From Minisyncoccota bacterium (GTDB lineage Bacteria > Patescibacteriota > Minisyncoccia > Phycocordibacterales > UBA918), in assembly GCA_041389025.1 (NCBI GenBank), contig JAWKSP010000001.1, positions 192,002-256,001 of the forward strand: DNA of 64,000 nucleotides. The letters are read 5' to 3'. Every line of letters starts with the position of its first letter. The stretch's first letter is position 1. The notes beneath the pieces are model-generated. The model worked only from the letters and a program-made list of their open reading frames with translations. It made no database searches and was not told the origin of the DNA. A program made the translations under genes and the position numbers. Below are positions 25,808 to 43,422 of this stretch, piece by piece.

Positions 25808-26969
25808 TGATTTGAGTTATTTCTTCTTCGAGTTCTGTATCTTCCTTTAATTCCAACTTAATTTTTTCACAAGAATGGATAACTGTAGTATGGTCTCTGC
25901 CACCTAGTTTCTTACCAATTGCAGGGTAAGAAACCTGGAAATCTTCACGTAATATATACATAATAATTTGCCTTGGTTTTACAATCTCTTTTCGTCTAGT
26001 TTTTTCATAAATACTAGATTGGTCTATGTCAAAATACCGAGCAACTTTTTCTACTACATCCGATACAGCTAAAGTTTTTCTTGGTTTTGAGCTGTTTTTA
26101 ATAATAGACTTAACTTCATCTAAAGATAGAGTTTTACCAAGTAGTTGTGACTGACACATGATGGTGTTTAAAGCTCCTTCAAGTTCACGAATATTTCCTT
26201 CAATCGATTGTGCTAAATGATCTACCACTTCATTTGATAGAGTTATACTGTTTTGAGCAGCTTTAGCTTTTAAGATAGCGGTTCTTGATTCTAAATCAGG
26301 AGCTGGGATGTCAACAATCATACCTTGAGCAAAACGAGACATCAGCCTTTCTTCTAGACCAGATAACAATCCAGGATGTACGTCACTAGAGAAAACTATT
26401 TGTTTATTGGTGTCATGAAGAGCGTTAAAAAGATGAAACAGCTCTTCCTGAGTTTTTTCTTTACTAGCTAAAAATTGAACATCGTCCATGATCAAAACAT
26501 CATATTGACGGTATTTGTCTTTAAAGCTGTTAGCTGTACCGTTTTGTAGAGAATTAAAGTAGTCTACCGCAAATCTTTCGCTAGTAACATAAAAAACTTT
26601 TTTACCGGTTTTTTTTACTTGGTTCCCCACTGCTTGAATAAGGTGGGTTTTTCCATGTCCGGTTTTTCCGTAAATAAACAAAGGATTGTAAGCGATTCCA
26701 GGTTTTTCACTAACGGTTTTAGCGGCTGTGTGGGCTAAAGCGTTGTAGTGTCCGATAACAAAAGTATCAAATGAATATTTTGGATTTAAGTTATCGCTTT
26801 TATTTATATAATATTCTTCTAAAGGTAGAGCAGCGTTTACGGTTTGAGTTTTGTTTCCGTTATCATTTCTTTTATCGCTTCTTTGCACTACTTCATATTC
26901 AATACTGCGAACATAAGGAGTTAGGTCTCTTAAAGTTTTCAAGATCATTGACTGAAATTTATCTTGCAA
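25791..26969 (-). CDS. dnaA: chromosomal replication initiator DnaA (minimal model from first canonical start TTG; domain I is encoded further upstream to at least 27125)
   Basis: AAA+ Walker A GKTGHGKTHL, DnaA box-binding C-domain; upstream in-frame codons encode LWDDALVKIELSITPANFKTWFRDTYILSLEDGTAVLAVPSVFVRDWL (DnaA domain I). Confidence 0.9.
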   Translation of the reverse strand: MQDKFQSMILKTLRDLTPYVRSIEYEVVQRSDKRNDNGNKTQTVNAALPLEEYYINKSDNLNPKYSFDTFVIGHYNALAHTAAKTVSEKPGIAYNPLFIYGKTGHGKTHLIQAVGNQVKKTGKKVFYVTSERFAVDYFNSLQNGTANSFKDKYRQYDVLIMDDVQFLASKEKTQEELFHLFNALHDTNKQIVFSSDVHPGLLSGLEERLMSRFAQGMIVDIPAPDLESRTAILKAKAAQNSITLSNEVVDHLAQSIEGNIRELEGALNTIMCQSQLLGKTLSLDEVKSIIKNSSKPRKTLAVSDVVEKVARYFDIDQSSIYEKTRRKEIVKPRQIIMYILREDFQVSYPAIGKKLGGRDHTTVIHSCEKIKLELKEDTELEEEITQIRMLLK

Positions 26970-27927: not shown

Positions 27928-28656
27928 ATGTTTAGTTATATATGGCACACATTTTTCTTCGATCCGGTTTACAACGGACTGGTTTTTTTTATAGATACTA
28001 TTCCTAGTGGTGATGTTGGGTTGGCGATAATTTTTACAGTAGTCTTTGTTAAGTTTATTTTATTACCTTTATCAATTAAGGCAGTAAAAACGCAAAAGAT
28101 AATGCGAGAAATCGAACCTAAACTTAAAGAAATAAAAGAGAAATACAAGGATAATCGTGAACAACAAGCGGTAGCGATGATGGAGATTTATCGTAATGCC
28201 GGCATGAACCCATTTGCAGCTATTTTTTTGATATTGTTACAAATTCCAATCATTATTGCTTTATACTTTTCGGTTTATAGTGGTGGTGGTGTAGCTTTGC
28301 CGGAAATTAACACAGCCCTTCTCTATTCTTGTGTTCAGGTGCCGGAGGTGGTAAATCTGTATTTTTTAGGGAGGATAGATATATCTGGAAAGAGTGTCTG
28401 GTTGGCTTTATTAGCAGGAGTGACTCAGTATTATCAGGTGAAGATTGCTATGCCGGAGTTGGCACCAAAAGATCCTAATAAAACACCTGATATGAAAGAA
28501 GAGCTGATGCGCAATATGCAATTACAAATGCGTTATGTGATGCCAGTTATTATTTTTGCAGTTTCTTATATAATTTCAGCGGCTATCGCCTTATATTTCT
28601 TTGTTAGTAACGTGGTGGCGATTTTACAGGAATTGTACGTAAAAAGACATCGGTAA
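27928..28656 (+). CDS. yidC: membrane protein insertase YidC (short Gram-positive/CPR type)
   Basis: 242 aa; 5 TM; conserved GLAIIFTVVFVKFILLPL...MMEIYRNAGMNPFA YidC/Oxa1 core. Confidence 0.85.
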   Translation: MFSYIWHTFFFDPVYNGLVFFIDTIPSGDVGLAIIFTVVFVKFILLPLSIKAVKTQKIMREIEPKLKEIKEKYKDNREQQAVAMMEIYRNAGMNPFAAIFLILLQIPIIIALYFSVYSGGGVALPEINTALLYSCVQVPEVVNLYFLGRIDISGKSVWLALLAGVTQYYQVKIAMPELAPKDPNKTPDMKEELMRNMQLQMRYVMPVIIFAVSYIISAAIALYFFVSNVVAILQELYVKRHR

Positions 28657-28726
28657 TAGGAAATAGGAAACTAAGAAAAATAAAAACCACCAAAATGGTG
28701 GTTTTTATTTTTCTTACTAAATTATC

Positions 28727-29446
28727 TTATTGACAAGTTATTCTCCAATACTGGATATTTCCAGTATTTAAGGAAGTGGCGTATGACCAAGTACCACCTA
28801 AACTTGTACATTTATTAATCCCTTCTGAACAGTCGTAGCCATTTTGAGCGGCGCTACTTGATACACAATTATACGTTTCTTGTCGATACAAACCTTTTTT
28901 TGCTTCCACTAAACACGGTCCTTTGTCAGCATTGCTGGAGTTGCTACCGTACCAAGTTCCGTTTAGTCCGTCTGGATCTTCACACTCTGCCTGACCTTCT
29001 GTGTTGTTGTCTAGATATTCAACGTTGTCACCAACTTCTCTTGTAACATTGCCTGGTAAGGCGGCTTTGGTTGGAGCGGAATTAGTTGGGTTAGAAACAG
29101 GAGCGATAAACAAGCTGGTGCTGGTGATGTTGGGATTAATGGTGTTAAAGATTAATACCGCTGAAATGATCAGGAGTAAACCTAAAGTAGCTCCCCAGAT
29201 ATCACCCTTAGCGTCTTGTTTGCTGGTGACTACATCAGTCAACATCCATTTAACACCAGCAACAATGATTTTAATTACTGCTAACAAAGCAGCTACACTG
29301 ATGGATAGGGCGTAAAGAGCATTTATATAGGTATTTAAGTCAGTGTTCGGGTTACTAACGCCAGGTATACCAACCAGAGTAGCTTGTCCTAAAGCTGTTG
29401 CTGGTAGTAAGAATATGGCAAAAATTAATATGTGTTTATAGCTCAT
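28727..29446 (-). CDS. VirB2/TrbC-like pilin with 130-aa cysteine-rich C-terminal extension
   Basis: Signal peptide, then two hydrophobic helices (ALYALSISVAALLAVIKIIVAGVKWML; IWGATLGLLLIISAVLIF) in VirB2 topology; C-terminal domain has 8 Cys; last gene of the T4SS-like cluster. Confidence 0.45.
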   Translation of the reverse strand: MSYKHILIFAIFLLPATALGQATLVGIPGVSNPNTDLNTYINALYALSISVAALLAVIKIIVAGVKWMLTDVVTSKQDAKGDIWGATLGLLLIISAVLIFNTINPNITSTSLFIAPVSNPTNSAPTKAALPGNVTREVGDNVEYLDNNTEGQAECEDPDGLNGTWYGSNSSNADKGPCLVEAKKGLYRQETYNCVSSSAAQNGYDCSEGINKCTSLGGTWSYATSLNTGNIQYWRITCQ

Positions 29447-30617
29447 ACATCCAAAGTGTGTTATCTATTTTATTTATAAAGTAAACAGCGTACTCACTGT
29501 CTCCAAGGTAGAGGTCGACAATATCAAGTTCTCGACTGGTTTGTTTGAAAGTGTCTGCTAGTAGAGTAGTTTTTAATTCTGAAGCATCAATCAGCCAAAG
29601 TGAATCTTTAAAATTCATTCCACCTTTATACCACTCATCTGGGAAGTTAAAAGGCAGGGTGGTTAATGAATCTTCGGCACAGATAAGGCTGGTTGTGTTT
29701 GTGCCAAGGATACACTTTTCAGGTAAGAGCGTTATTGGTAATTCTGATTTTTCTAAAGTTTCTAAATTAAAAACAGAGGTATTGTTTTCTCGGTTATTGG
29801 TGGTACTGTAGATAATCATTTTGTCATTTGCTAAGGCTGAAAAGCCAAAACCGGAAGCTGGTAGTCTGTCTATTTTATTGTTCTTAACTTTATATAAATA
29901 TCCCTCCAAAAGATAAGACGGTTTTGGATAAACATAATGTGTGTCTTCAGCGCTATTTCCCCATTGTATGGTGGCTTCGTGAAAAGGTAAGGAAAATACT
30001 ATAGTATCTTTTTTGGTTGTTAGATTTAAATTGTGACCATTTAAACCGTTGGAGTCAGTGGTGGTGTAAAGTAGGTTTTGCCCATCTTGACTTAAGGTAA
30101 AACTATTGACTGCCAAACCAGGTTCTTCTAAAGCGGTTTCACCGGTTTCTTTATCGAGGGCGCCGATGGTTAAGTTGGTGTTCTTGGTGTTAGTGTGTTT
30201 ACTAAAAACTATCCAGTCACCATTCGGGTCTATTTCAGCATGGTTAGTTTCGGCGACAGTGGTGCCTGAAATTTTATTTTCTTCTCCCGTCTCTAGGTTG
30301 ATTGAAAAAACATGTCCTGTCCCCTTTTCAGCATAATATATAATTGGGATATTAGCCGCTCCAGAGTCGGGGTTGTTGATTTCTGTAAAACCAGCTACTG
30401 ATTTGGTGGTCAATTGGCGCAGGTTTGGTCCGGTTGTGTTTATGGTTGGTTCTTTGTTTTCTTCAGTATTATTTACCTCTTCTTCGCCGACGGTACCAAG
30501 TTTTACAAGCACATCCTGCACACTTTTTGGGGTACCAAAAAATAATAAATAAACCCAAACGGCAACAAGAATTAAGATTACAATTGCTCCGCTAATAATT
30601 AAAATTTGCTGTTTCAT
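29436..30617 (-). CDS. membrane-anchored hypothetical protein, beta-propeller-like repeats
   Basis: 393 aa; N-terminal TM; repeated G-x-hydrophobic-rich strand patterns; part of cluster. Confidence 0.35.
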   Translation of the reverse strand: MKQQILIISGAIVILILVAVWVYLLFFGTPKSVQDVLVKLGTVGEEEVNNTEENKEPTINTTGPNLRQLTTKSVAGFTEINNPDSGAANIPIIYYAEKGTGHVFSINLETGEENKISGTTVAETNHAEIDPNGDWIVFSKHTNTKNTNLTIGALDKETGETALEEPGLAVNSFTLSQDGQNLLYTTTDSNGLNGHNLNLTTKKDTIVFSLPFHEATIQWGNSAEDTHYVYPKPSYLLEGYLYKVKNNKIDRLPASGFGFSALANDKMIIYSTTNNRENNTSVFNLETLEKSELPITLLPEKCILGTNTTSLICAEDSLTTLPFNFPDEWYKGGMNFKDSLWLIDASELKTTLLADTFKQTSRELDIVDLYLGDSEYAVYFINKIDNTLWMYEL

Positions 30618-30625
30618 AAGCTACA

Positions 30626-31579
30626 CTAATAATTTACTTTAAATTCTGATTCAGCTCCTTGTAAAATAACATCCAAACTTCTAACTCGAAATTCAACTCT
30701 GGACGTACCGCTACCGCCTTGTCTAGCTAATGTTACTTCATAAGGATTTCCAGAGCTACTAGGGCTGCGTTGACCGTCTATTTCCCACTCGATTAAACTT
30801 GGTCGGTTGTAAGTGTTTATATCTAAGTAGTAAGGTTCGGCCTTTATGTTGGTGGTGTCGCCAATTAAATTTAAAGAATTTTTTATCTGGTTGTATTTTA
30901 TACCTAAAAGAGGATTAACTTCATAAAATCTAATTTCTGGTTCCACTGAAGCCAGTTCTAAACTACGAGAAGCTACTTGGTTTCCGTTCAGGTCGTTTAT
31001 GGTTATGGTGACTATGTTGAATCCACCAAATGGTACCTTGAGTGATATTTCATTTTTACCTCTAATTGGACCACCTTCAATGTTTACGTTGTTTAATGAC
31101 CAGTTATAAATATAGTTATTGCTACTTTGTCCATTTACTAAAGCGACCAAGTTTATAGTACTGTCTACTGTAGGTAGGGCTCTACCTAAATAAAAGGCCG
31201 GTACTCTAGTTTGCGGTTCAATGATAACATCTAAATAAACCGGTCTAATAATTTTTCTGTCAGTAAAGGTCTTCCCTCCAACTGTTTCCACTACAGCTTC
31301 TAAGGTGATGTTTTTTCCAGCTTCTTTGGTATTTACTTCAATCGTGCGTTTGTTACTCAACTCTACCTTTGTCTCACCATCAATTTTCCAGAAAATATTA
31401 GTAGTTTGTTCAGAGATGGAATAGTCGTCAATTGAAGCCTTGATTAAACTATAAGGACTGATGTAGTCAGATTCTACGTCAATACTCAAACCGGATCCGG
31501 CTAGATTAGGGCTGATTTGTGCATAACTAAAACCAAATGGTGACAGTAAAATAATGGCAACTATTAATAATTGTTTCAT
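30626..31579 (-). CDS. secreted hypothetical protein (beta-rich, Ig-like repeats)
   Basis: 317 aa; signal peptide MKQLLIVAIILLSPFGFSYAQ. Confidence 0.35.
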   Translation of the reverse strand: MKQLLIVAIILLSPFGFSYAQISPNLAGSGLSIDVESDYISPYSLIKASIDDYSISEQTTNIFWKIDGETKVELSNKRTIEVNTKEAGKNITLEAVVETVGGKTFTDRKIIRPVYLDVIIEPQTRVPAFYLGRALPTVDSTINLVALVNGQSSNNYIYNWSLNNVNIEGGPIRGKNEISLKVPFGGFNIVTITINDLNGNQVASRSLELASVEPEIRFYEVNPLLGIKYNQIKNSLNLIGDTTNIKAEPYYLDINTYNRPSLIEWEIDGQRSPSSSGNPYEVTLARQGGSGTSRVEFRVRSLDVILQGAESEFKVNY

Positions 31580-31628
31580 ATTAGCTTAATAATAACAGAC
31601 TAAAACCTAAAAAAATGATAATTGATCC

Positions 31629-32450
31629 CTATCTTGGGTATTTCGCTACTACAGTAGTCCAGACTAAAAGCCAAGGAGCTAAATTGAATAGTGGTATGGA
31701 ATAGCCAATAATAGCTAGTAAAAAAGCCCCGTATTTAGCTCCAGCGTGACTACCACCTAGAGATTCAATGTTGTTTTTTTTGTAAAAAACAAATAAACTA
31801 AACATAATAATCATATTTATACCCAGTAACAAAAGATGTGGTATAAAAAAAATACTAAGTGACACATCTTCTAGACTAAAGCCGATTAAGTTGGTGGTAA
31901 AGTCATAAATTCCACCGAAGACAAATCTGACAGTATTAAAAATAAAGTTTCCGTTACTGGAAATGGTGTCAGCTATAGCGGTCGCGGCACCGGATAAAGC
32001 AAAACCAACTAAACTAAATATCCCTAAAGGAAGTTGAACGGTTGGCCAGTAACCAATATACAAAGAACTGGTCCAGCGCCCAATAATTTTAGCTTGTTTC
32101 TTCTTTATCTTAGTAGTAACAGATAGGTTGGTTGATGAGTTTCGGTGAGGAGTTTTTATTAAATTTGCTACCGGTATTTGTCCTTCGGCTCTGGTCTTGA
32201 AATTTTGTACTACCCTACCTTGGTTGTCGGTGGTGACATCGGTTGTTTTAGGTTTAGTTACTTTTACTTTATTTACGCCAGAATGTTTGTATTGTAAATT
32301 GAACTTTTGGTCAACTGTGGGGTTGTTTGGTACGTCATTTTCTTTTAAATATTGCCAGTCATCATTTAAACGGTCACCACCAGTTCGTTTGGCGGTCTGG
32401 TTTTTGGATTTATTAGATTGAAAATCCGCGGTATTTTCGGCAGTGGCCAT
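31629..32450 (-). CDS. hypothetical membrane protein (basic hydrophilic N-half, 4 C-terminal TM)
   Basis: 273 aa; in cluster directly downstream of the VirB4-like gene. Confidence 0.35.
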   Translation of the reverse strand: MATAENTADFQSNKSKNQTAKRTGGDRLNDDWQYLKENDVPNNPTVDQKFNLQYKHSGVNKVKVTKPKTTDVTTDNQGRVVQNFKTRAEGQIPVANLIKTPHRNSSTNLSVTTKIKKKQAKIIGRWTSSLYIGYWPTVQLPLGIFSLVGFALSGAATAIADTISSNGNFIFNTVRFVFGGIYDFTTNLIGFSLEDVSLSIFFIPHLLLLGINMIIMFSLFVFYKKNNIESLGGSHAGAKYGAFLLAIIGYSIPLFNLAPWLLVWTTVVAKYPR

Positions 32451-32472
32451 ATGTAATTAAGTATACTACATG

Positions 32473-34266
32473 TTAGCTACGGGAAGCCTGAAGTTCTTCT
32501 CTCGCTTTTTTGATCTGTAGTAATTGAGAGGGATCAGAAGTGATGATCTGATCTTCTGTATAAGAAGCAATAACTTTTACAGCTACATGTTTGAGTCCGG
32601 CAAAAAATATTCCTTCTCCTACATTTGATTCCAAAAGCAAAAACTTCTCTTCATCGGTCAGGTTAAAGGTTTTTTGAATGTTATCGATAGCGGTTGGTGA
32701 TTGTTTCATCAGAAATTGTATAGATGAGTTGGTGATCATTGGAACTCCGTAGGGTGAGCGCAAAAAATCGTCCACGTCTTGAGTGATGGTGGCGATACCA
32801 AGATAATACTTTCGACCACGCTTAGCTAGACTAAATAAGAAAGAAGCAGTGTCTTCTGATTTCATCATCCACCAAGCTTCGTCAATGACTAGTAGTCGTT
32901 TAGCTAGTCGGCGACGCACAGAGCCCCAGATAAAATTGGTAATTATATACATAGCTACCGTTTTTAGTTCATCTTCCATGTCTCGTAAAGAGAAAACTAC
33001 AAACTTTTGGTTGATATCAACGTTGGTTGGTTTATTCATAAAACCAGACCAGGTGCCGGACGTATATTTTTGTAATCTAGATATAAGCGAACTACTGCCG
33101 TCCATACCAGCCAGCACCATTTCAAAGTCTGATAAAAGTGGTGGTTCTAGACTGGAAAAGTCAGTGTCTCCAGTGATGTCTTTTAAGGCGTAAGTTTCTT
33201 GAACGGCTAAATCAAGGATAGTTTCTTCTTCTGGGGTCAGGCCGCCAAGCATTAATCTAAAGAGACCAATTAATTCAATAATATGGCTACGTAAAACATC
33301 TCTGGGGTTTTCATCTTGTTGGGGCGGTGGTAAATCAAAAGGATTTATGTGGTGATCTGAAGATAAAGAAATATTAAAAAAGCGCCCGCCGGTGGCTTCG
33401 GCTAGGTATTCATATTCTCGTTCTGGATCGAGAACAATAACTTCTGCTCCAAACATTAAAGAACGAAGAATCTCCAGTTTTAGACTGTAGGATTTACCAG
33501 CACCAGAGGTGGCAAAGGTTACTGAGTTGTAGTTTGTTAAAGAAAAGCGGTCAAATAATACCAAGGATGAATTGTGGCGATTTACTCCATATAAAATTCC
33601 GGTGTCTGAAGTTAGGTCAAATGAAGTAAAAGGAAAGAAGCTTGATAAAGGTGAAGAATTAAACTTGCTGTGTACCAGTAGTTTGTCGGTGGCTGAGGGT
33701 ATGACACTCTGCATACCTTGTTCCTGTTGAAATAGTGCTGGTTTTATATAGACTAATCTAGCATCCAACATACCTTTAATATCATTTTCCGCTTTATTTA
33801 ATATCGCTTCACTCTCACCGTAAATAGTTATATAAAATCCAACATTAAATAATTTTTCCTCAGCTTGTTGTAATTTGTCACGTAATTCTTCTAGATTGCG
33901 GTAAGCTGCTTCAAGTTGCGGGTCGCGTACTTCCCCCTTTTCTGCCTTAATGTTTATTTGGCTTTGTACTTCAGCTACTTTTTTTTGAAATTTCTTTAAA
34001 GTGTCGGCGGTGTCTATGGGGTGGATGTAGATGGAAATATCTAACTCCCTTTCAACATTTAAGATTGGTTCTAACCAACTGGAGTTAAGATAGTGTGGAT
34101 AGGATACCGCATACAATACTCTAGCGTACTGCCCACTTAAATTTAGGTTTCTTGGAGTGAAATTAATTGCTGATGGTGCTACCACATCAATTAATGTCAT
34201 TAGTTCATCACTAATATCAAATTCATCCTTATTAGGTTTTTGTGTAAATTTATCAAAAAAGTTCAT
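32473..34266 (-). CDS. VirB4/TrbE/TraC-family type IV secretion ATPase (C-terminal ATPase portion)
   Basis: 597 aa; Walker A ATSGAGKSYSL; Walker B region RLLVIDEAWWMM; C-terminal ...LGIATITQDVDDF typical of VirB4. Confidence 0.7.
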   Translation of the reverse strand: MNFFDKFTQKPNKDEFDISDELMTLIDVVAPSAINFTPRNLNLSGQYARVLYAVSYPHYLNSSWLEPILNVERELDISIYIHPIDTADTLKKFQKKVAEVQSQINIKAEKGEVRDPQLEAAYRNLEELRDKLQQAEEKLFNVGFYITIYGESEAILNKAENDIKGMLDARLVYIKPALFQQEQGMQSVIPSATDKLLVHSKFNSSPLSSFFPFTSFDLTSDTGILYGVNRHNSSLVLFDRFSLTNYNSVTFATSGAGKSYSLKLEILRSLMFGAEVIVLDPEREYEYLAEATGGRFFNISLSSDHHINPFDLPPPQQDENPRDVLRSHIIELIGLFRLMLGGLTPEEETILDLAVQETYALKDITGDTDFSSLEPPLLSDFEMVLAGMDGSSSLISRLQKYTSGTWSGFMNKPTNVDINQKFVVFSLRDMEDELKTVAMYIITNFIWGSVRRRLAKRLLVIDEAWWMMKSEDTASFLFSLAKRGRKYYLGIATITQDVDDFLRSPYGVPMITNSSIQFLMKQSPTAIDNIQKTFNLTDEEKFLLLESNVGEGIFFAGLKHVAVKVIASYTEDQIITSDPSQLLQIKKAREELQASRS

Positions 34267-34271
34267 ATTTT

Positions 34272-34913
34272 TTAAGTTTGTCTTTCGGCCACAGGAGCAT
34301 TGCCGGTAGTGTCAGCTGGGTTGTAGACATGGTAAAACAACTCCACTAAATCATCGTTATTTAAAGGAATGGTTCTTACTCCCACTCGCGCCAAGCCTTG
34401 TTGAATAATAGATACTCTTTGTTCTAGTTGAGTTCTTTGTTCTTCAAATCGCATATCGGTTGGTAGTTTGGTGGTGTTTTGACTTCCAAATAATGAACTT
34501 ATTCCCTTGGTAATATTCACCGGAGTTGGTGAATATGGAACCACTACAAAAAAATTTTTACTCATTATATCAACTTCATTGGTGAAGGTTCTAATAAATT
34601 CTATGTATTCACGAAGTTGAATCCGCATCAGGTCGTTATCTTGCATGGTTTCACGGGACCTTAAGAGTTCCAAGTATGGTTCTATATTTAAACGTCTGGA
34701 CTGAATGTATATCTGGATTGAGAAATCTAGGGTGTTTAAAAATGTTTGAAATTGTTGCAAAATCGCCTGTTGTTCATCGGTGGACTTCAAGGCAAAGTTA
34801 ACTGAAGAAGCTAGTAGGACGGTGCACATTTGACCAGACTTCAAAATAGCAACACCGTCTTTTATATCACGGATGGCTACAAAGTCTTGGGTGGTGGCGG
34901 ATGTTTTTGGCAT
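34272..34913 (-). CDS. VirB4 N-terminal-domain-like protein (separate ORF, 5 nt upstream of ATPase ORF, different frame)
   Basis: 213 aa; DFVAIRDIKDGVAILKSGQMCTVLLASSVNFALKSTDEQQAILQQFQTFLNTLDFSIQIYIQSRR resembles the VirB4/TraC N-domain pattern. Confidence 0.4.
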   Translation of the reverse strand: MPKTSATTQDFVAIRDIKDGVAILKSGQMCTVLLASSVNFALKSTDEQQAILQQFQTFLNTLDFSIQIYIQSRRLNIEPYLELLRSRETMQDNDLMRIQLREYIEFIRTFTNEVDIMSKNFFVVVPYSPTPVNITKGISSLFGSQNTTKLPTDMRFEEQRTQLEQRVSIIQQGLARVGVRTIPLNNDDLVELFYHVYNPADTTGNAPVAERQT

Positions 34914-34914
34914 A

Positions 34915-35334
34915 TTATTCTTTCTTTTGTAAGGCTTCTAATTCTAATCGTCTAGCTAAAGAGTTTATGTCTTTCCCTCTCATTTTAGTGTTTGGTGTTT
35001 GAGGCTTGCTTTTATTTATAGAATTTGGGGTAAACAAATTTTTGTGAACAATGTCTTTTTTTTGTCGCCATAAATATAACTTATTACTTCCAAGATAGTT
35101 AAAGACAGCTTCTAGAAAAAAAGAAAAAGGTCGATTGTTTACCGGATAAAAAGCTAAAGCCCCAGCGAGTATCATGAGAGGTAAACCAATAATAATAAAA
35201 ACTATTGTTGGTGCAACAAAAAACAAAACTACACCCATTCCAATACCTCCACCAAGATAGAGAAATTGCCGCCAAGTCAAAGGACCGAAAATCTTATCTT
35301 CTATCTCGATAAACTGTGGTACCTCAAAACGCAT
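34915..35334 (-). CDS. VirB3/PrgI/TcpE-like small two-TM protein
   Basis: 139 aa; KIFGPLTWRQFLYLGGGIGMGVVLFF then second TM; immediately upstream of the VirB4-like ORFs. Confidence 0.45.
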   Translation of the reverse strand: MRFEVPQFIEIEDKIFGPLTWRQFLYLGGGIGMGVVLFFVAPTIVFIIIGLPLMILAGALAFYPVNNRPFSFFLEAVFNYLGSNKLYLWRQKKDIVHKNLFTPNSINKSKPQTPNTKMRGKDINSLARRLELEALQKKE

Positions 35335-35434
35335 AACTTATAGATATACAAATTATATTATACACGTAACACCGGACCAATAGTCGTTTTTATGTGTACT
35401 AATTTTATAAATTTCCAAGCTATCAAAATTATTT

Positions 35435-35797
35435 TTATGGTTGAGGGGTGTTGGTGGTGTTAAATGGTTTGCCGGCTCCTTGGTCGAAATCAGTTTTGGT
35501 GTTGTCAGGGTTTTTGGTTAGAGATTTTACAAAATTTAATATTTTTACTGATAATACTTGGGTGGTTTTGTTATCTATGGCGAGCTTGGTTAGTTTGTCA
35601 GGTAAGTCAATGTCTGATATTAAATTAAGTAGATTATTAGAAGTAATTACTATTAATTTACTTTTCAACCCACTGTAAGGTGTGTCTTTAAGGATATTTT
35701 CTACAAATATACCTATTTCGTCAGAGTCTATTATATCCTTTATATTTTTATCAGATTCTTTATAGGATTTTAAAAAGTTGTCAAATTCAGTACTCAT
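35435..35797 (-). CDS. hypothetical cytoplasmic protein
   Basis: 120 aa, no TM, no motif; inside cluster. Confidence 0.3.
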   Translation of the reverse strand: MSTEFDNFLKSYKESDKNIKDIIDSDEIGIFVENILKDTPYSGLKSKLIVITSNNLLNLISDIDLPDKLTKLAIDNKTTQVLSVKILNFVKSLTKNPDNTKTDFDQGAGKPFNTTNTPQP

Positions 35798-35821
35798 AAT
35801 TTTGGTGTAAAATAATTTATT

Positions 35822-37849
35822 TTAAGAAAAGAATTGAGCTGCGTAGTTGGAATTTCCGTTTGCCCATTTAACCCATGGATTGTTTTTTCCTAAGGCAGTT
35901 TCTTCAGGAATGTCTGTAGAACTTATTCCTAGGTTGGTAGATAGAGCTACTCTTACATCTGATTTATCCTTGCTTGACATACCGTTCTTTATTCTTTCCT
36001 CTAGCATGGCTGGGGTTATGTGGTCATACATATTAGATTGCTTGAAAATATCAATAGGCATTTTCCCTATATCTCTTACGTTTCTTGTAAACATAGAAGG
36101 TTTTTGATCTACACTACTAGCATTTGGATGTGCGTAAACAAGTGCTCCACTGGAGTCTTTTCCTGCCCCTAATACATTACCGTGCGTAGATATATTCGTG
36201 AAGGCGTTGTTTCTGGTATTTTTAATATCTTGTATTTGTTGCGATGAGAATTTACCGGTTTTTTCTAGGTTAGTGATATCATCATCTGACAAATGTACTG
36301 CTACATTTTGAGTGTTTAATTTGTCAAAACCTAACCTTTCTTTTTCTATACCAGTCATTTGCTTTATTGTCTTTCCAAGTTCTTCAAGCGCATCTGATAG
36401 AGATGAGGAGCTCTTAGTGTGGTCAGTAAGGATTTTATTATTCTCTTCAAATTTATCTTTTCGTTCCTGCTCACCTCTTGTTTGGTTTGCTCTGGCTTGA
36501 GTAGATTGCTTGTATTCTCTTTCTCTCTGGTTTGTTGTTCCTGTGCCTAGTTCGGCATTTTTTTGCTTCTCTGCTCCACCTCTGATAGTTTTATCAACCC
36601 AGTTCCATCTAGATGCTGTTCCAAGTACACCACTTCTTGTCTGTAGTTCGTTTAATTTTCTTTCACTATGTGCTCCAGAAGCATTTACTGCTGTACGTAT
36701 TCCTGCTCTGGCTGGATAGGTTATACCAAATACTATATTACCCGCCCCTCTTTGAGTGGCTCTTCTAGCTCGTCCGGCTAAGTTGCGACCGACATTTATT
36801 ACACCAGAAGCACCGTCTGCCCCCATTCTGTTAGCTACTACTACAGCTGCGACCAAAAAGACACAGGTTACTAAAAACATAGCAATAACGTTGGCGATTT
36901 CGTTTGAGGTAGCGTTTCCTTTGGCATAAATTTCCGCCATACTTATATTGCTGGCATTTTGGAAGTTGGTCAGTATATAGAAAGCGAGATAAAGCATTAA
37001 AAGGTAGGCTGGAGCAAAGAAGGCTCTACCTAAAAATCCTTTCCAATAATCCCTAGAGTAATTGGCCATACTTGGAAATACCCAACCCAAAAACATGATT
37101 GGGGACAATATCATGTAGATGTTTAAAACCACAAATCTAATAATTAAAAGAAAGGCGCCGGCAAAGAAAACAAAAGCCATTACTACAAAAGTTATCATGG
37201 TGCCAAAAACGTAAGTAAAACCACTACCGACTTGGTTGGTGGTAAAGTTCGATAAAGTTTTATCGTCCCAGATACTGGATAGACCAAGTACGTTGGCAAA
37301 ACCATCGGATACTTCATAAGTTCCTGTTGGGTTGGAATGGTCAAAGGCTTGGGCTACTTGAGTGGCGGCGACGTTTGAGAAATCAACGATAAATTTGGTA
37401 AAGAAAAGGCTGAAGTTCACCAATAAAGCCGCCATTATAATGTAGGCCAACATTCTTCTGGCATCAGTGTCACCGGCGTTTAAAATCATTTTAAAGCCAA
37501 TGTAGACTAAACCAAAAATGAAGGTTAAATTAAAAATGTCTCTTACCACTTCCCATAGTCTATCTACCGCAAAACCTAAGCCGGAGTTGTTGTATAGGTC
37601 AGCAAAACCAACTACAAAAGTGGTAACAGCTAAGTTTAGTAGTGTGCCGGCCACCCAAACCAAAAAACCAAAAACTGCGTTAACAAACAACCATAAAACT
37701 TTCTCTAAACCACTGGATATGCTACTTAGTACTCCACCATCATTAACATCTGAGGCAAAAATTAAAGATGGTAAAAATAGTGTCACCAAAGCCAAGGCGC
37801 TAAATAGGATTTTCTTTCTGTTAAGGGTTAATTTATTCATATTTATCAC
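35822..37849 (-). CDS. VirB6/TrbL-like polytopic membrane protein with about 330-aa hydrophilic C-terminal extension
   Basis: 675 aa; signal/TM then at least 6 TM helices in TrbL-like arrangement; Arg/Gln/Glu-rich C-terminal tail. Confidence 0.5.
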   Translation of the reverse strand: MINMNKLTLNRKKILFSALALVTLFLPSLIFASDVNDGGVLSSISSGLEKVLWLFVNAVFGFLVWVAGTLLNLAVTTFVVGFADLYNNSGLGFAVDRLWEVVRDIFNLTFIFGLVYIGFKMILNAGDTDARRMLAYIIMAALLVNFSLFFTKFIVDFSNVAATQVAQAFDHSNPTGTYEVSDGFANVLGLSSIWDDKTLSNFTTNQVGSGFTYVFGTMITFVVMAFVFFAGAFLLIIRFVVLNIYMILSPIMFLGWVFPSMANYSRDYWKGFLGRAFFAPAYLLMLYLAFYILTNFQNASNISMAEIYAKGNATSNEIANVIAMFLVTCVFLVAAVVVANRMGADGASGVINVGRNLAGRARRATQRGAGNIVFGITYPARAGIRTAVNASGAHSERKLNELQTRSGVLGTASRWNWVDKTIRGGAEKQKNAELGTGTTNQREREYKQSTQARANQTRGEQERKDKFEENNKILTDHTKSSSSLSDALEELGKTIKQMTGIEKERLGFDKLNTQNVAVHLSDDDITNLEKTGKFSSQQIQDIKNTRNNAFTNISTHGNVLGAGKDSSGALVYAHPNASSVDQKPSMFTRNVRDIGKMPIDIFKQSNMYDHITPAMLEERIKNGMSSKDKSDVRVALSTNLGISSTDIPEETALGKNNPWVKWANGNSNYAAQFFS

Positions 37850-39561
37850 TAGTTGGTAAATACTGTATCTATATTTACTAAATTATCCCAATCATTTATT
37901 TTGCCATCTAAGTAAGGTTCTGTATATTCTGGGGAGTTTCTTATTAGCAGATATTGGTCAATTGCTTTTGGTCCAGCCAACATATCACCACTAGAAACAT
38001 TGTTGGCATAATCAGATGCAATTTTTTCTAGTTCAGCAAATTTATCTAGGATAGTTTGAGCTTCAGCTGCTTGTGTTAGGTAGCCAGCATCTTCTAAAGC
38101 TTTCTTGTATAAACTGATTGTTTTCTTGTATTTGTCGACAACAGCGGCTGAATCGGCATACATAGTATTAAACATACCAAACCATTTATCTTCTTGGGCT
38201 TGAATTTCTGATTCTATATGTAGAGAGTCCAGTCTCTTGAATTCTTGATAGGCTTGAGCGACTGTCTTTGTGCCGTTTTGAACGTCGTTTATTAAGGTTT
38301 GTATATCAGTGATAGCTTTGATTATCTCACCGTTTGGTGAAGCTAATAGGTCATTTTGTATTCGATTGGCTTCAGCTTGGAAAGCTGGTTCTGGTATAGC
38401 AGATAGTACTCTTGCGTAGTTTTGAGCTAGCTGTTGATACTCTTGTTCACGTTTTAGGGCGGCTAGTACCTCGTCAACTATATTCTGTACGATACCGTCT
38501 TTGGTGGCATCTTGATCAATTATTAGTTGGTCTACTGCCGGATTACCACCATAGGTGCTGTAATCAGTATAACCGGTACCGGAAGATAGTCCCAACAAGC
38601 CACTTGCTCCCATTAAAGCTTGTTGTCCGATATTGGCTAACATTGAACCAATTGCTTCACTAAATTCGTCGGCAGCTATTAAACTCTCAACTCCGGCGGT
38701 AAGCTGAAAGTTCAAGGCTTCACTAATAACTTGCCCTGGAGTAGAAACAATACACCTTTCTTTGTTTACACCAAGACTTGATGGGATAACGCTACAAATT
38801 TTGTTAGAAATAAAACCATCAGCAAATTCCAGTAAGTTATTTTCGCTGGTCTCAGCGTTTAATATTTGTACAGCTCCTTCATCTTGAACCGCCAATAAAC
38901 TTCCGTATGGAGTAAAGGTGTTTGATTGGGTGGCTACTCTGTACCATGCATCCCAACCACCGTCATTGAAAGAGCCGTTAATAAAGTTATCTAAGTTGGC
39001 TATTGGACTACCTGGAGCAGACATTGCCAAATCACAGCTTCTTACGCTGTGAACCGGTATGTTGGCGACTCTGGCTTCTCTGTAGGCCTGAGCAAAAGCC
39101 ACTTGCACATTGGCGCGAAAAGGTTGGCAGACAAAACTATTAGCACCAATTTCGTGAATGAATTCACCATAGACTCGGTCAGATATTTCGAGCATATATC
39201 TTTCAATGTCTTGAACAAACATCGGTCTACCCTTAAATCCGGAATTAATCCACGATATTATGTTGTTGGTGATTTCAGCGATAACCATTTTCATGGCAAA
39301 CCAAGCCATGGGGTCAAGGAAGAATTCTTTATAATTTATACTTTGTAATATACCGGCCATGATTCCTGAAAATATATCAATCGACCATAGAAGACCGCGG
39401 TTTATCCATTGAGTTGAGTCTTTGGCATCTATTCCCGCTTCAACTTGTGATATGTTGTTTCCGTGATTCCAAGGTTGTGGTACATAGACACTAACAAACA
39501 TAAAACAAAGAGCAAAAGTCATCATTATGATTTTTTGTACTAGTCGATGAAAATTACTCAT
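37849..39561 (-). CDS. membrane-anchored large extracellular protein (hypothetical; candidate VirB5/VirB8/hydrolase-equivalent)
   Basis: 570 aa; single N-terminal TM; no recognisable catalytic motif. Confidence 0.3.
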   Translation of the reverse strand: MSNFHRLVQKIIMMTFALCFMFVSVYVPQPWNHGNNISQVEAGIDAKDSTQWINRGLLWSIDIFSGIMAGILQSINYKEFFLDPMAWFAMKMVIAEITNNIISWINSGFKGRPMFVQDIERYMLEISDRVYGEFIHEIGANSFVCQPFRANVQVAFAQAYREARVANIPVHSVRSCDLAMSAPGSPIANLDNFINGSFNDGGWDAWYRVATQSNTFTPYGSLLAVQDEGAVQILNAETSENNLLEFADGFISNKICSVIPSSLGVNKERCIVSTPGQVISEALNFQLTAGVESLIAADEFSEAIGSMLANIGQQALMGASGLLGLSSGTGYTDYSTYGGNPAVDQLIIDQDATKDGIVQNIVDEVLAALKREQEYQQLAQNYARVLSAIPEPAFQAEANRIQNDLLASPNGEIIKAITDIQTLINDVQNGTKTVAQAYQEFKRLDSLHIESEIQAQEDKWFGMFNTMYADSAAVVDKYKKTISLYKKALEDAGYLTQAAEAQTILDKFAELEKIASDYANNVSSGDMLAGPKAIDQYLLIRNSPEYTEPYLDGKINDWDNLVNIDTVFTN

Positions 39562-39571
39562 AAGCGCTTAT

Positions 39572-40483
39572 TTATTGAATATTATTTAAATCAGTATTAA
39601 TAGCTACAAACAAAACCGCCGGATCATTGGTGTCGAATTGACTAGCATAAGGAACTAGTACTTCGTACATATTTTCAAGCGCTAACTTTAGACCCAAGGT
39701 ATCATCTTCATATCTTTTAAGTCGAACTAAAGTCAAAAGCGGATCATCCATTATTTGAGACATTCCCTCTACATCCTGCTTTAAAGCATTATAGACATTT
39801 ATTAGGTCCAAATGAACTTTTACTAGTTGTTTAGGTACTGGAACAACTAGGCTGTCATTAATGGTTTTTTGGTAAACGTTAGCTAGTTTATTTAGGTTAT
39901 CTATATCAGTTTGGTATTCACTACCTTCCATTGCTGAATTCATTATGTTTTGCAAGGATTCAATTTCGTATTCAGCATCAGAATCATTGTCTAATATGGC
40001 TGAGGCCATGGCGTTTGCATAAGTACGCACTGCTTCGCCAGAGGTGTCGCTGGAGACTGAAATATCTCTTAAATCATACATTTTGTCCTTCCCTGCTTCT
40101 AGTGCGTCTTTAGCTAATTCTTCAGCTACACTTTCTGGAGTACGTCCAAAAGGGTTGGCGGTTTTTATACTAACGAGGTTTGAAAAAAGGCTGATACCAG
40201 TTTGCCCGGTTAGAGTAGTTGGTAATTCGTAATTAGGATCGATTTCATTTTTTAAATAAATTGGCTCTGGAGTCAAGAATTTTTCTTGCCAATCTTCCAA
40301 ACCATCGTCATTAGAGTCTTTAACATCAATAAACACCCGAGGCGGAGCCTCGCTAACAGCTGCTAGGCTGGCGTCTTTTGGTGCAGAAACCGGATCGGCC
40401 ATGCCTTTTACAACATAAGTACCAGCTACTATTGCAAAACCTACAATAAAAGCACCGACAACTTTGGAATCGAATTGGCCCAT
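39572..40483 (-). CDS. membrane-anchored hypothetical protein (first gene of cluster)
   Basis: 303 aa; N-terminal TM VVGAFIVGFAIVAGTYVV, acidic soluble domain. Confidence 0.3.
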   Translation of the reverse strand: MGQFDSKVVGAFIVGFAIVAGTYVVKGMADPVSAPKDASLAAVSEAPPRVFIDVKDSNDDGLEDWQEKFLTPEPIYLKNEIDPNYELPTTLTGQTGISLFSNLVSIKTANPFGRTPESVAEELAKDALEAGKDKMYDLRDISVSSDTSGEAVRTYANAMASAILDNDSDAEYEIESLQNIMNSAMEGSEYQTDIDNLNKLANVYQKTINDSLVVPVPKQLVKVHLDLINVYNALKQDVEGMSQIMDDPLLTLVRLKRYEDDTLGLKLALENMYEVLVPYASQFDTNDPAVLFVAINTDLNNIQ

Positions 40484-40589: not shown

Positions 40590-41411
40590 TTATTTAAGAG
40601 CTTTAGTCAAAATAAGCCATTGTTGAAGCGGTAAATCCTCCCCTCTAATTTTATTGTTTATACTAAGTTCAGAAAAAGTTGCTTCTAAGTTAGAACGAGA
40701 ATATTTTTTACTTAAATTACTCAATAATTGCTTACGTTTATTACCTAAACCAAGATGTAGGATTTTGAAAAAATTCTTAATAGAAATTTCCTCAGTAAAG
40801 TTATTATTATTTATATTATCAATTTGTAAAATAGCCGAATCGACTTTTGGTTGAGGTTTAAAATGACCTTTAGTGACGGTTTTTATATAACGTGGTTCAC
40901 CAAAAACTTTTACTGATAAGGATAAGATTGACTCTTTTTTACTGCGAGCAATTCGTTCGGCTAATTCTTTTTGAATTAAGAAAGTAACAGATTTGGGCTG
41001 TTGGTCATTTTCCAGTAAAAAACGTAATAAAAAACCAGATAAATAATAAGGAATATTTGCTACTACTTTAAATTTGTGTTTCCTTAAACCTAAGTCTTTT
41101 AAGGATATATTCTTTATGTCAGCTTCTATAATTGTAAGTTTACCAACTCTTATTTCCTGACTAAAAGTTTCTTTTAGTTTTTCTACTGCTCGTTTATCAG
41201 TTTCAACGGCTAAGACTTTAGAACTTTTTTGTAAAATTGACTTAGTCAGCATACCGGTTCCTGGACCGATTTCTAGTATTGTGTCGTTTTCCTCTAGTTT
41301 AGCGGCTTCACACATCCAATTAGGAACAATGTCACTGGTTAAAAAGTTTTGTCCTAGTGATTTTTTATGTTGGAAACTTTCTTCTGATGTTTTAGATAAG
41401 TCATTCTTCAT
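40590..41411 (-). CDS. rsmA: 16S rRNA (adenine1518/1519-N6)-dimethyltransferase
   Basis: SLGQNFL; SAM-binding ILEIGPGTGMLT; NIPY motif. Confidence 0.85.
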   Translation of the reverse strand: MKNDLSKTSEESFQHKKSLGQNFLTSDIVPNWMCEAAKLEENDTILEIGPGTGMLTKSILQKSSKVLAVETDKRAVEKLKETFSQEIRVGKLTIIEADIKNISLKDLGLRKHKFKVVANIPYYLSGFLLRFLLENDQQPKSVTFLIQKELAERIARSKKESILSLSVKVFGEPRYIKTVTKGHFKPQPKVDSAILQIDNINNNNFTEEISIKNFFKILHLGLGNKRKQLLSNLSKKYSRSNLEATFSELSINNKIRGEDLPLQQWLILTKALK

Positions 41412-41457
41412 GTCGATATTTTTATCAGGTTAGCAAGAAAAACTATATAAATCTAGG

Positions 41458-43422
41458 TTAATCTAAGAAAATAGTCGTTTCGTAGCCGGAGCCGTCACTG
41501 CCAAAACTGGTTGGATTAGAGCTTTCAACATGCTCTTGGTCGATGTCGTTTAAAAAAGATGAGGGTACATTTACTCTTTGACTGCCATAAATAGTACGCA
41601 TATGAGCATAAGATAAAAAGAGTTTTTTAATGGCTCTGGTTAAAGCTACATAAAAAAGTCTTCGTTCTTCTTCATGGTCTATACCAGTATCATCTAGTCT
41701 CTCGTGTGGGAATAGCCCTTCCTCTAAACCACAAATAAAAACATAAGGAAATTCCAAACCTTTAGCGGCGTGTACGGTCATCAGTCTAACAGCATCTTGC
41801 TCCTCTTTGTTCTTTAGTTCATCTTGATCACTTTGTAGGCTAACTGTTTCTAGGAAACTTTCTATCGCTTCTTCTGGGTCTAGCTGATCGTAACGTTGGC
41901 CTAATGTAACTAGTTCTTGTAGATTTTCTAGTCGAGATAAGTCGTCTTCGGTACCGTTTTTCTTTAATTCGGTTTCTATTCCGCTTCGTTTAATAATAAA
42001 TTTTAAAGTTTCTGATAAAGGTTTAGTTCTAGCTTCGTCGGCAATATCTTGCATTAGTTGGTCGAATCGACTGACTTTTTCTAAAGTGGCTCCAGTTATT
42101 TCTGATCTTTTCCCTTCTACAACCTTAAGCATAGTTACTTTTCCGATACCACGAGTCGGATAGTTTATGATTCTGGTCAAATCAGCGACATTATTTGGGT
42201 TTAAAGATAATCGTAAGTAAGATAAAACATCTTTTATTTCTTTTCGGTCAAAGAATTTAGTCCCTAGTAACTGGTAAGCTACACCATAGTTTAAAAAAGC
42301 TTCTTCTAAAACACGTGACTGGAAGTTGGTTCTATACAATACAGCTATTTCAGACGGACTAACTCCTTCTTTTATCAAGCTATCAGCTTTTAAAGCTATA
42401 TATTCTGCTTCATCAATACCGTTCATAGCGGCGTAAAGGTTGATTTTTTCACCAATATCATTGTTGGTAAACACTTCTTTATGAACGCGGTTTTTATTTT
42501 TCTCTATTACTTGGTTGGAAGCGGCAATGATAGTTTTGGTAGAGCGATAATTTTCTTCAAGGAGAATAGTTTTTGCTCTAGGGAATTCTTTTTCAAATTG
42601 TAAGACGTTTTTTATATCAGCTCCACGCCAAGAATAAATATTTTGATCAATATCCCCTACTACACAAATATTTTGTGGTTGCCCAGCCAATAATTTTGCT
42701 GTAGTAAATTGAACAGCGTTGGTGTCTTGGTACTCATCAATATGAATATAGAGATATTTTTTTTGTAACTCTTCTTTAACAAATGGATAGGTTCTTAATA
42801 AGTGTAAAGTTTTAGACAATAAATCATCAAAATCTAAGGCATGCTCTTGGTTTAAACTATTTTCATAGTGTTCCCAGACCTCACCAGCTACTTGGTCTGG
42901 AAAACCAGTAGCTGATTGTTTGAATTCTGTAACTGATATAGCATCACCTTTGGCTTTAGAAATACGGCTAAGAATTTTTTTTGGTTCAAATTCCTTAGGA
43001 TTATAATTGGCTTTTTCGATAGCTAATTTAACAGTACGTAAACTGTCGGAGCGGTCATAAATAGTAAAATGACGAGGTAAATTAAGGGTTTTATGGTATT
43101 CACGCAAAATTCTAACTCCCAAAGCGTGAAAGGTAGTGACCGTCGGTAATGAGTCTAAGGCGGCTCGATTGGAAGGCGGGTATTGTTTTACTAAAGTTTC
43201 TACTCGCTCTCGCATTTCTTTAGCGGCTTTATTGGTAAAGGTAACTGCCAATATGTTGTGAGGGGCAATTCCTTGATGGATTAGATGGACAATTCGGTGG
43301 GTGATTACTCTGGTTTTACCGGAGCCAGCTCCCGCCAAAACCAGCAAAGGTCCTTTTGTATAGAGTACAGCTTCTTTTTGTGCTTCATTAAGTCCTTCTA
43401 GGTACGGTGGGTGGTTTTGCAT
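41458..43422 (-). CDS. pcrA: ATP-dependent DNA helicase PcrA/UvrD family
   Basis: 654 aa; motif I AGAGSGKT, II (DEYQDTN), III, V, VI TVHAAKGLEF. Confidence 0.9.
   Translation of the reverse strand: MQNHPPYLEGLNEAQKEAVLYTKGPLLVLAGAGSGKTRVITHRIVHLIHQGIAPHNILAVTFTNKAAKEMRERVETLVKQYPPSNRAALDSLPTVTTFHALGVRILREYHKTLNLPRHFTIYDRSDSLRTVKLAIEKANYNPKEFEPKKILSRISKAKGDAISVTEFKQSATGFPDQVAGEVWEHYENSLNQEHALDFDDLLSKTLHLLRTYPFVKEELQKKYLYIHIDEYQDTNAVQFTTAKLLAGQPQNICVVGDIDQNIYSWRGADIKNVLQFEKEFPRAKTILLEENYRSTKTIIAASNQVIEKNKNRVHKEVFTNNDIGEKINLYAAMNGIDEAEYIALKADSLIKEGVSPSEIAVLYRTNFQSRVLEEAFLNYGVAYQLLGTKFFDRKEIKDVLSYLRLSLNPNNVADLTRIINYPTRGIGKVTMLKVVEGKRSEITGATLEKVSRFDQLMQDIADEARTKPLSETLKFIIKRSGIETELKKNGTEDDLSRLENLQELVTLGQRYDQLDPEEAIESFLETVSLQSDQDELKNKEEQDAVRLMTVHAAKGLEFPYVFICGLEEGLFPHERLDDTGIDHEEERRLFYVALTRAIKKLFLSYAHMRTIYGSQRVNVPSSFLNDIDQEHVESSNPTSFGSDGSGYETTIFLD

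Follow-up and report, generated by a model that had tools for sequence, protein, structure and literature searches.

The type IV secretion systems (T4SSs) of the Patescibacteria, a group that accounts for much of bacterial diversity and apparently lives on other microbes, were counted among the newcomers to the T4SSs in a 2025 FEMS review (PMC12857230). In 2023, an "apparent T4SS" resembling the conjugative systems of Gram-positive bacteria was described in Southlakia epibionticum, where it is encoded by SEML1_0006-0019 (Wang et al., 2023, Cell, PMC10633639). It has essential pilins and no recognizable relaxase or coupling protein, and transposon sequencing found it to be essential for epibiotic growth (PMC10633639); before the relaxase-free T4SS of the Patescibacteria, no T4SS had been shown to be essential to its own bacterium. 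A subsequent survey (Quinonero-Coronel et al., 2025, Microb Genom, PMC12102498) found VirB4 in 2,417 of 3,035 Patescibacteria genomes and assigned 2,425 VirB4 proteins to one monophyletic clade within MPF-FATA; the system is reported there from 2,407 Patescibacteria assemblies. Close to virB4 were genes for TrsD, PrgI/VirB3, VirB6 and VirB2-like pilins, with almost no relaxases; homologs of the type IV coupling protein (T4CP; VirD4-like) were present in most genomes, mostly far from virB4; and in the Paceibacteria, virB4 was located close to dnaA, dnaN, ksgA, rnpA and rpmH (PMC12102498). The subject of the present analysis is an eleven-gene cluster within 64,000 nucleotides of a Minisyncoccota bacterium (GenBank assembly GCA_041389025.1, contig JAWKSP010000001.1, positions 192,002 to 256,001), a stretch hereafter called the window. 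As judged from the proteins it encodes, the cluster is a genuine T4SS, namely the origin-proximal, relaxase-free system already known across ultrasmall Patescibacteria, in its Paceibacteria form. It is no new kind of system, and the idea of a relaxase-free Patescibacteria T4SS was in print in 2023 and 2025. New here are fold-level calls on the accessory genes, a large family around a 570-residue protein, a hypervariable extension of the pilin, and the conservation of VirB4 at the level of housekeeping proteins.

The cluster comprises 11 intact, co-directional open reading frames (ORFs) on the minus strand, at 28727-40483, with neighbors overlapping by up to 11 nt or separated by up to 100 nt (Table 1). 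Its tight packing and single direction had been described in an earlier reading of the letters alone (the sequence-only reading), which also named a VirB4-family ATPase with an SGAGKS motif, a two-transmembrane VirB3/PrgI-like protein, a polytopic VirB6/TrbL-like protein and a VirB2/TrbC-like pilin; all four assignments held up in profile hidden Markov model (HMM) searches, those for VirB4 and PrgI directly and those for VirB6 and the pilin through orthologs. With six ORFs left as unrecognizable, that reading accounted for ten genes only, and the eleventh (213 aa, 34272-34913), which it did not name, is TrsD-like. The whole is best explained, with a probability of about 85%, as monoderm conjugation machinery of MPF-FATA descent that is no longer part of a mobile element.

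The VirB4 ATPase matched the NCBIfam model NF045971 (conju_CD1110) with 361 bits against a cut-off of 325, aligned to model positions 177-732, and was also matched by the Pfam family P-loop_TraG (6e-26). Its Walker A motif is TSGAGKS, at residue 253. For comparison, contigs of one genome per species were scanned for VirB4 relatives; at least 589 stretches were found, and the best 80 loci (68-87% VirB4 identity) were retained; profiles were built from 46 positional orthologs. All 80 were labeled Patescibacteria, mostly Paceibacteria/Parcubacteria groups and some the generic "uncultured Candidatus Saccharibacteria." Across the orthologs of these 80 species, 178 of the 597 VirB4 positions were invariant, and the GxGKS and Walker B (DEAW) motifs were intact without exception. 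The best curated VirB4 models were the MPF-FATA-type CD1110 and then Mbov_0397; judged by profiles and nearest relatives, the protein may belong to the Patescibacteria clade within MPF-FATA.

The VirB4 motor appears to be split over two polypeptides. The 213-residue product of the adjoining gene, which was found in 79 of the 80 loci, aligned to positions 99-257 of NF045975 (VirB4_plasma, Mbov_0397; 8e-12), to NF041427 (TrsD; 2.7e-6) and to positions 3-101 of conju_CD1110 (3.6e-6), all three matches being far under the whole-protein cut-offs. Because this protein fits the N-terminus of the VirB4 models and the 597-residue protein fits the remainder, the N-domain and the ATPase body appear to be encoded apart, the latter corresponding to the C-terminal two-thirds of a canonical VirB4.

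Next to the motor genes is one for a PrgI/VirB3-like protein (Pfam PrgI, 9.6e-11; 42.5 bits against a cut-off of 27), found in 78 of the 80 loci. The 675-residue VirB6-like protein had no direct Pfam match, and its identity was established transitively; ten of its 46 orthologs matched Pfam TrbL/VirB6 (best, 2e-8), and it has seven transmembrane-like segments followed by a hydrophilic C-terminal region of approximately 300 residues. Genes for VirB3 and VirB6 proteins adjoin that of a VirB4 in which both Walker motifs are intact, as in T4SSs of any class, and the TrsD-like protein, PrgI/VirB3 and the VirB2-like pilin alongside virB4 are the set found in the Patescibacteria clade. Between the VirB6 and PrgI genes lies a fast-evolving ORF for a 120-residue protein devoid of transmembrane segments. 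A tblastn search of the related loci with it found nothing, and its family has no Pfam or PDB match; an iterated HMM, though, recovered its N-terminal domain of approximately 100 residues between the VirB6 and PrgI genes in 58 of 58 loci. The proposal that this ORF is spurious was rejected, given that the domain fills the same slot in each of them.

The pilin itself reached only 4e-4 with Pfam T4SS_pilin, which is under the cut-off, and was identified through its positional orthologs, 43 of 46 of which matched T4SS_pilin (best, 2e-11) and eight TrbC/VirB2. It consists of a signal peptide, a two-transmembrane hairpin (residues ~47-103) and a 134-residue C-terminal extension (residues 106-239) with six Cys residues. 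Whereas identity to close relatives is 45-71% over the core (residues 1-105), the extension gave 22-32% under forced alignment, which is at noise level, and was essentially unalignable even between loci with approximately 85% identical VirB4. Among orthologs, the extension ranges in length from 9 to 283 residues and has an even number of Cys residues in 97% of cases. Hypervariability of sequence and length together with even Cys counts is what a fast-diversifying domain with disulfide bonds and exposure at the surface would be expected to show, and the extension may be a displayed specificity domain held by disulfide bonds.

A conserved pilin core with a hypervariable, Cys-rich extension, as would be expected of a specificity determinant at the surface, would also fit an organelle that is a pilus only, i.e., a VirB2-type adhesive pilus for attachment to a host through which nothing is translocated, with the extension as its adhesin. 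The Ig-like (immunoglobulin-like) and propeller surface proteins encoded in the cluster could serve such a pilus, and no T4CP, the usual recruiter of substrates, is linked to it. However, a translocon would be just as compatible with the extended VirB6 channel protein and with a VirB4 so extremely conserved, adhesion in Saccharibacteria is already provided by type IV pili, and T4SSs that secrete without a T4CP are known, such as Bordetella Ptl and Brucella VirB. Attachment as the sole function is accordingly regarded as improbable.

Conservation of the neighborhood bears on whether the system is mobile. The order uvrD-ksgA-303-570-VirB6-small-PrgI-TrsD-VirB4-(273)-317-393/pilin-yidC-dnaA-dnaN, where numbers denote protein lengths, was conserved in up to 80 other Paceibacteria species in a comparison of synteny such as had been proposed with the sequence-only reading; ksgA flanked the cluster in 45 loci and uvrD in 37. 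Even in loci without a tblastn match to the 303- and 570-residue proteins, a gap of 2.1-4.5 kb was retained between ksgA and the VirB6 gene. VirB4 was the most conserved protein of the neighborhood. Its identity exceeded that of DnaA in 46 of 60 loci, and that of DnaN, YidC, KsgA and UvrD in every locus having both; among the more distant species, the median identity was 70.7% for VirB4 vs. 57.2% for DnaA. This high conservation, coupled with the invariant catalytic motifs, suggests that the ATPase is active and under strong purifying selection, and the pattern of the cluster agrees with vertical inheritance of a strongly constrained machine and not with a mobile element.

The origin-proximal position noted earlier was borne out. 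One flank carries yidC (27928-28656, plus strand), rnpA, dnaA (25791-26969) and dnaN, and the sign of the GC skew changes at approximately 25-27 kb, by dnaA. As the enrichment of DnaA boxes was not significant (26 matches vs. 19 expected), placement of the origin rests on gene content and GC skew. The other flank carries ksgA, pcrA/uvrD, a divergent gene for a LysM-M23 peptidase, and comM/yifB. A chromosomal T4SS without a relaxase near virB4 and close to dnaA, dnaN, ksgA, rnpA and rpmH, as reported for the Paceibacteria, is therefore what the window contains.

Genes for transfer and mobility were sought among the non-overlapping ORFs of at least 150 aa throughout the 64-kb window, or approximately 30 kb on each side of the cluster. 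None belonged to the VirD4, TraG, TcpA, relaxase, VirB11 or transposase families, and a T2SSE-superfamily ATPase (15355-17082, plus strand) proved to be PilB (425 bits) and not VirB11 (46 bits). Nearly all of the other ORFs scanned represent ordinary chromosomal families, while three had no family match. The absence of VirD4, VirB11, relaxase and transposase from the window had been stated in the sequence-only reading and stands; the absence of an integrase does not, in view of a tyrosine recombinase of the Xer type (52457-53374, plus strand, 305 aa) that scored 252 bits with the XerA model against a cut-off of 220 and approximately 245 bits with those of XerC and XerD. It is the sole gene of the integrase family in the window, lies 12 kb from the cluster, and probably encodes a chromosome dimer resolvase of the housekeeping type. 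Lack of a coupling protein likewise holds for the window, although VirD4-like genes have been reported far from virB4 in most Patescibacteria genomes.

These observations can be set against the notion that the cluster is an integrated conjugative element (ICE) or what is left of one in decay, its relaxase, T4CP and integrase having been lost or lying beyond the window. Its VirB4 does belong to the family of ATPases that serve the conjugation of Gram-positive ICEs and plasmids (the CD1110 and Mbov_0397 models), a tyrosine recombinase is encoded at some distance, and T4CP homologs are reported elsewhere in most genomes of the phylum. Yet the position and gene order between ksgA and yidC-dnaA are identical in dozens of species, in most comparisons the evolution of VirB4 is slower than that of DnaA, the recombinase is of the Xer type, and every cluster gene is intact. 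The cluster does not differ from its flanks in GC content, a search for att-like direct repeats around it found none, and no tRNA gene is adjacent to it, the only one being 20 kb away. An ICE is thus highly improbable. Conserved synteny, housekeeping flanks, matching GC content and the absence of att-like repeats point instead to a fixed chromosomal machine, in strong support of the earlier statement that this is not a classical conjugative or ICE module; neither a relaxase, a VirD4 homolog nor an integrase was found adjacent to it.

Of the systems described to date, the Patescibacteria-clade T4SS (PMC12102498) is the closest. It shares with the window a VirB4 that is probably of the MPF-FATA-derived clade, TrsD, PrgI/VirB3, VirB6, a pilin, the want of a nearby relaxase or T4CP, and proximity to the origin; no essential difference was recognized. 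In the entry for the Paceibacteria genome RAAC4_OD1_1 in Table S3 of that study, the genes are listed as VirB6(531)-x-VirB3(533)-TrsD(534)-VirB4(535)-x-VirB2(537), with the T4CP as gene 469, and the core order in that entry, VirB6-x-VirB3-TrsD-VirB4-x-VirB2, is that of the window. The T4SS of S. epibionticum also has the core order VirB6-like ... PrgI, TrsD-like, VirB4, with an Ig-like exported protein encoded downstream, VirB2-like pilins (PF18895), a location at the start of the chromosome near replication genes, and neither a relaxase nor a coupling protein in the cluster. It differs in having an array of six pilins, compared to the one of the window with its long C-terminal extension; two giant VirB6-like proteins (998 and 1088 aa) as opposed to one of 675 aa; and a lysozyme-like VirB1 analog and an NTF2-like protein, neither of which was found in the window cluster.

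The MPF-FATA systems of Gram-positive bacteria (pCF10 Prg/Pcf, pGO1 Trs, CTn2/CD1110 and the Mycoplasma ICE) have in common with the cluster PrgI, TrsD, a VirB6-like protein, a VirB4 of the CD1110 family (above the cut-off, with Mbov_0397 weaker), and a monoderm architecture without VirB7, VirB9 and VirB10. Unlike them, the cluster has no relaxase, T4CP (PcfC/VirD4), VirB8-like protein (PrgL/TcpC) or VirB1-like hydrolase, and it is not carried by a plasmid or ICE but occupies a fixed chromosomal site under housekeeping-level constraint. A pilin in a system so derived is less anomalous than it might seem, because VirB2-like PrgF pilins were reported in Gram-positive conjugative systems in a preprint of December 2025 (10.64898/2025.12.18.695078).

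Relaxase-free, VirB4-containing systems of T4SS origin are also represented by Helicobacter pylori ComB and archaeal Ced, and ComB furthermore resembles the cluster in being without VirD4 and VirB11. ComB, however, has a diderm VirB7-10 core and Ced uses CedA/A1/A2, and none of these is present in the window cluster; no VirB7-10 family was matched, and the two proteins modeled are not VirB8-like. The sequence-only reading had proposed either ComB-like DNA uptake or contact with a host cell, both of which have been discussed in the literature (PMC10633639, PMC12102498, PMC12857230). As an uptake machine, the system would import DNA or nucleotides, from a host or from the environment, for a genome that is unable to make nucleotides. 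The absence of relaxase and T4CP at the locus would fit, as would a partial match of VirB4 to the model of the DNA-import ATPase CedB (8.5e-10, far under the cut-off), the presence of pcrA/uvrD directly upstream in conserved synteny with comM/yifB nearby, and published reports that, in the class ABY1, virB4 has genes of competence and recombination in its vicinity. The only genetically tractable relative, though, takes up DNA by type IV pili and ComEC, and because deletion of comEC in Saccharibacteria abolishes competence without loss of viability while the T4SS is essential (PMC12857230), the ComB-like proposal is weakened. Moreover, the PilB-type ATPase in the window indicates that a competence pilus is already present, and the genes for PcrA and ComM belong to the usual housekeeping complement of a reduced genome. 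DNA uptake as the purpose of the system appears unlikely.

The remaining genes of the cluster encode surface and membrane proteins, and for two that had been thought unrecognizable, those of 393 and 317 aa, a fold could be recognized by profile. A profile of 46 orthologs of the 393-residue protein matched TolB chains in the PDB (1.8e-7), and NCBIfam propeller_TolB was reached at 4.8e-5, far under its cut-off; with a single transmembrane segment at residues 5-23, the protein is predicted to be a membrane-anchored, extracytoplasmic, TolB-like beta-propeller. Its gene was found in 64 of 80 loci. The corresponding profile of the 317-residue protein, whose gene was found in 63 of 80 loci, matched phage T4 Hoc (3shs; 1.5e-5) and, weakly, ZirU, and its N-terminus is signal-peptide-like with A19 and Q20 conserved. 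The 273-residue protein, which has no Pfam or NCBIfam match, has at least three transmembrane-like segments and a polar, probably disordered N-terminal half. It is the sole cluster gene product restricted to close relatives (tblastn matches in 14 of 80 loci), and its membership of the system is suggested by position only.

The 570- and 303-residue proteins, which are the same as R3B60_01225 and R3B60_01230 on a 622,966-bp contig of a Candidatus Paceibacterota metagenome-assembled genome (MAG), were subjected to the structure prediction that had been advised for the unrecognized ORFs. This succeeded in part. The 303-residue protein was modeled as an N-terminally anchored, extracytoplasmic four-helix bundle; it carries an acidic loop, DxNxDGxxDW, at residues 55-64, in which D55, G60, D63 and W64 are conserved. 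Its candidacy as VirB8/PrgL/TcpC was rejected, given that a helical bundle is predicted and not an NTF2-like alpha+beta domain following a transmembrane segment. The 570-residue protein matched nothing in Pfam, NCBIfam or the PDB by sequence, and a Foldseek search of its AlphaFold2 model found no PDB neighbor at E<=1e-3. It has a conserved domain at approximately residues 75-330 with four nearly invariant Cys residues and a WINSGFxGxPxFV motif. Confidence of the model (predicted local distance difference test) was 71 overall, approximately 50 in the N-domain, and >90 for the helical residues 340-569. It was considered as an analog of VirB1, VirB5 or VirB8, and neither the sequence searches nor Foldseek, with the N-domain modeled poorly, assigned it to any of these. 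The family is large, with 5,662 representatives of 50%-identity clusters at E<=1e-3 and no Pfam model. In the Nomurabacteria genome GCA_020632175.1, family members carry right-handed beta-helix repeats in place of the helical tail, and in one homolog (locus L081, 8001-10352) these repeats resemble Pel9A; three family members of such size were recovered from this genome in the database search.

Taken together, these components suggest how the machine might operate. VirB4 hexamers docked on PrgI/VirB3 and VirB6 would power the extraction and polymerization of pilin and possibly the passage of a substrate. The polymerized pilin would cross the monoderm envelope as a short conduit or pilus, and the propeller, Ig-like, helical-bundle and 570-residue proteins would either support the apparatus across the wall as a scaffold or bind a partner cell. 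The machine is thus proposed to mediate contact-dependent exchange with a host bacterium and not relaxase-dependent conjugation, with export of protein to the host as the most likely direction; uptake of material from the host would also be possible.

Several considerations weigh against this account. Beyond the identity of its components, the mechanism is one that we infer from established T4SS biology. Only the conservation of their adjacency assigns the 303-, 570-, 393-, 317-, 273- and 120-residue proteins to the machine. In the Nomurabacteria genome mentioned above, what comes after the uvrD-ksgA-303-570 block is elongation factor G and the S10 operon and not VirB6/VirB4, and so membership of the 303- and 570-residue proteins rests on adjacency and on the overlap of the start of the VirB6-like gene with the stop codon of the 570-residue gene. 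Finally, the cluster yielded no VirB8-like or VirB1-like protein; the 303-residue protein is a predicted helical bundle, and the 570-residue protein was modeled poorly in its conserved domain.

Should the core of VirB4, VirB6 and pilin import macromolecules or metabolites from the host, the system would be a conduit for tapping the host as opposed to an injector of effectors. This is a tentative idea and on balance a doubtful one; if it were true, a housekeeping role in import would explain why VirB4 is conserved above DnaA in most comparisons, and host specificity would be set by two elements, the hypervariable, disulfide-rich C-terminal domain of the pilin and the C-terminal modules that vary within the 570-residue family (helical here, beta-helical in paralogs). 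Whichever the direction of the exchange proposed above, the locus presents the Paceibacteria version of the system as held at one origin-proximal site, with its motor under housekeeping-level constraint and a fixed set of surface proteins. These proteins and the pilin extension are concrete targets for structural and host-range work.

Table 1. Features of the cluster and its borders, from low to high coordinate within the cluster, followed by adjoining features.
Feature	Length (aa)	Coordinates	Strand	Basis
VirB2-like T4SS pilin	239	28727..29446	-	Ortholog matches to T4SS_pilin/TrbC; transmembrane segments
Anchored TolB-like beta-propeller protein (predicted)	393	29436..30617	-	Ortholog profile against PDB
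Secreted or anchored protein with tandem Ig-like domains (predicted)	317	30626..31579	-	Ortholog profile against PDB
Polytopic membrane protein, lineage-restricted	273	31629..32450	-	Transmembrane-like segments; tblastn
VirB4 ATPase	597	32473..34266	-	NF045971 above cut-off; P-loop_TraG
TrsD-like protein	213	34272..34913	-	Partial matches to NF045975, NF041427 and conju_CD1110
PrgI/VirB3-like small membrane protein	139	34915..35334	-	Pfam PrgI
Small fast-evolving protein	120	35435..35797	-	Iterated HMM
Extended VirB6/TrbL-like polytopic protein	675	35822..37849	-	Ortholog matches to TrbL/VirB6
N-terminally anchored protein	570	37849..39561	-	Large family without annotation; AlphaFold2
N-terminally anchored extracytoplasmic four-helix-bundle protein (predicted)	303	39572..40483	-	Predicted structure
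Perfect 21-bp inverted repeat with T/A runs		28672..28716		Likely bidirectional terminator
ksgA and pcrA/uvrD, housekeeping neighbors upstream		40590..43422	-	Pfam and NCBIfam matches; synteny

At the borders of the cluster, the inverted repeat sits between the convergent yidC and pilin genes and likely serves both transcription units as a bidirectional terminator. On the opposite side, ksgA and pcrA/uvrD, which run in the same direction as the cluster, possibly share a transcription unit with it, but they are not parts of the T4SS. No start of an operon is claimed since a scan for sigma-70-like promoters returned 41 sites, fewer than the 52 in shuffled sequence. If oriC adjoins dnaA, as suggested by the GC skew and by the arrangement rpmH-rnpA-yidC / dnaA-dnaN, the 13 genes from uvrD and ksgA through the T4SS run toward the origin and hence head-on to the replication fork, as do approximately 21 of the 28 genes rightward of it (window 24000-64000); this orientation, unusual for highly constrained genes, is kept in the related species (loci L001-L080).

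Upstream, 3.3 kb from the cluster and divergent from uvrD, a gene encodes the nearest wall hydrolase, a peptidase with two LysM domains and an M23 domain (43823-44848, plus strand); the gene is syntenic with the end of the cluster in nine related loci. LysM and M23 domains have been reported in the literature on VirB1-like proteins of Patescibacteria, and this peptidase could supply the wall-hydrolase role absent from the cluster. The gene for the PilB-type ATPase and that for a ComM/YifB AAA ATPase (45052-46566, minus strand) are each less than 20 kb from the T4SS, which fits the competence and adhesion based on type IV pili that are known in Patescibacteria. A 644-residue protein (46960-48894, minus strand) with no Pfam or NCBIfam match has a K/P/E-rich, probably disordered N-terminal half, one transmembrane segment and an outside C-terminal domain of approximately 190 residues. 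Farther along, at 58458-60328 on the minus strand, two neighboring genes encode paralogous M14 zinc carboxypeptidases of 303 and 316 aa.

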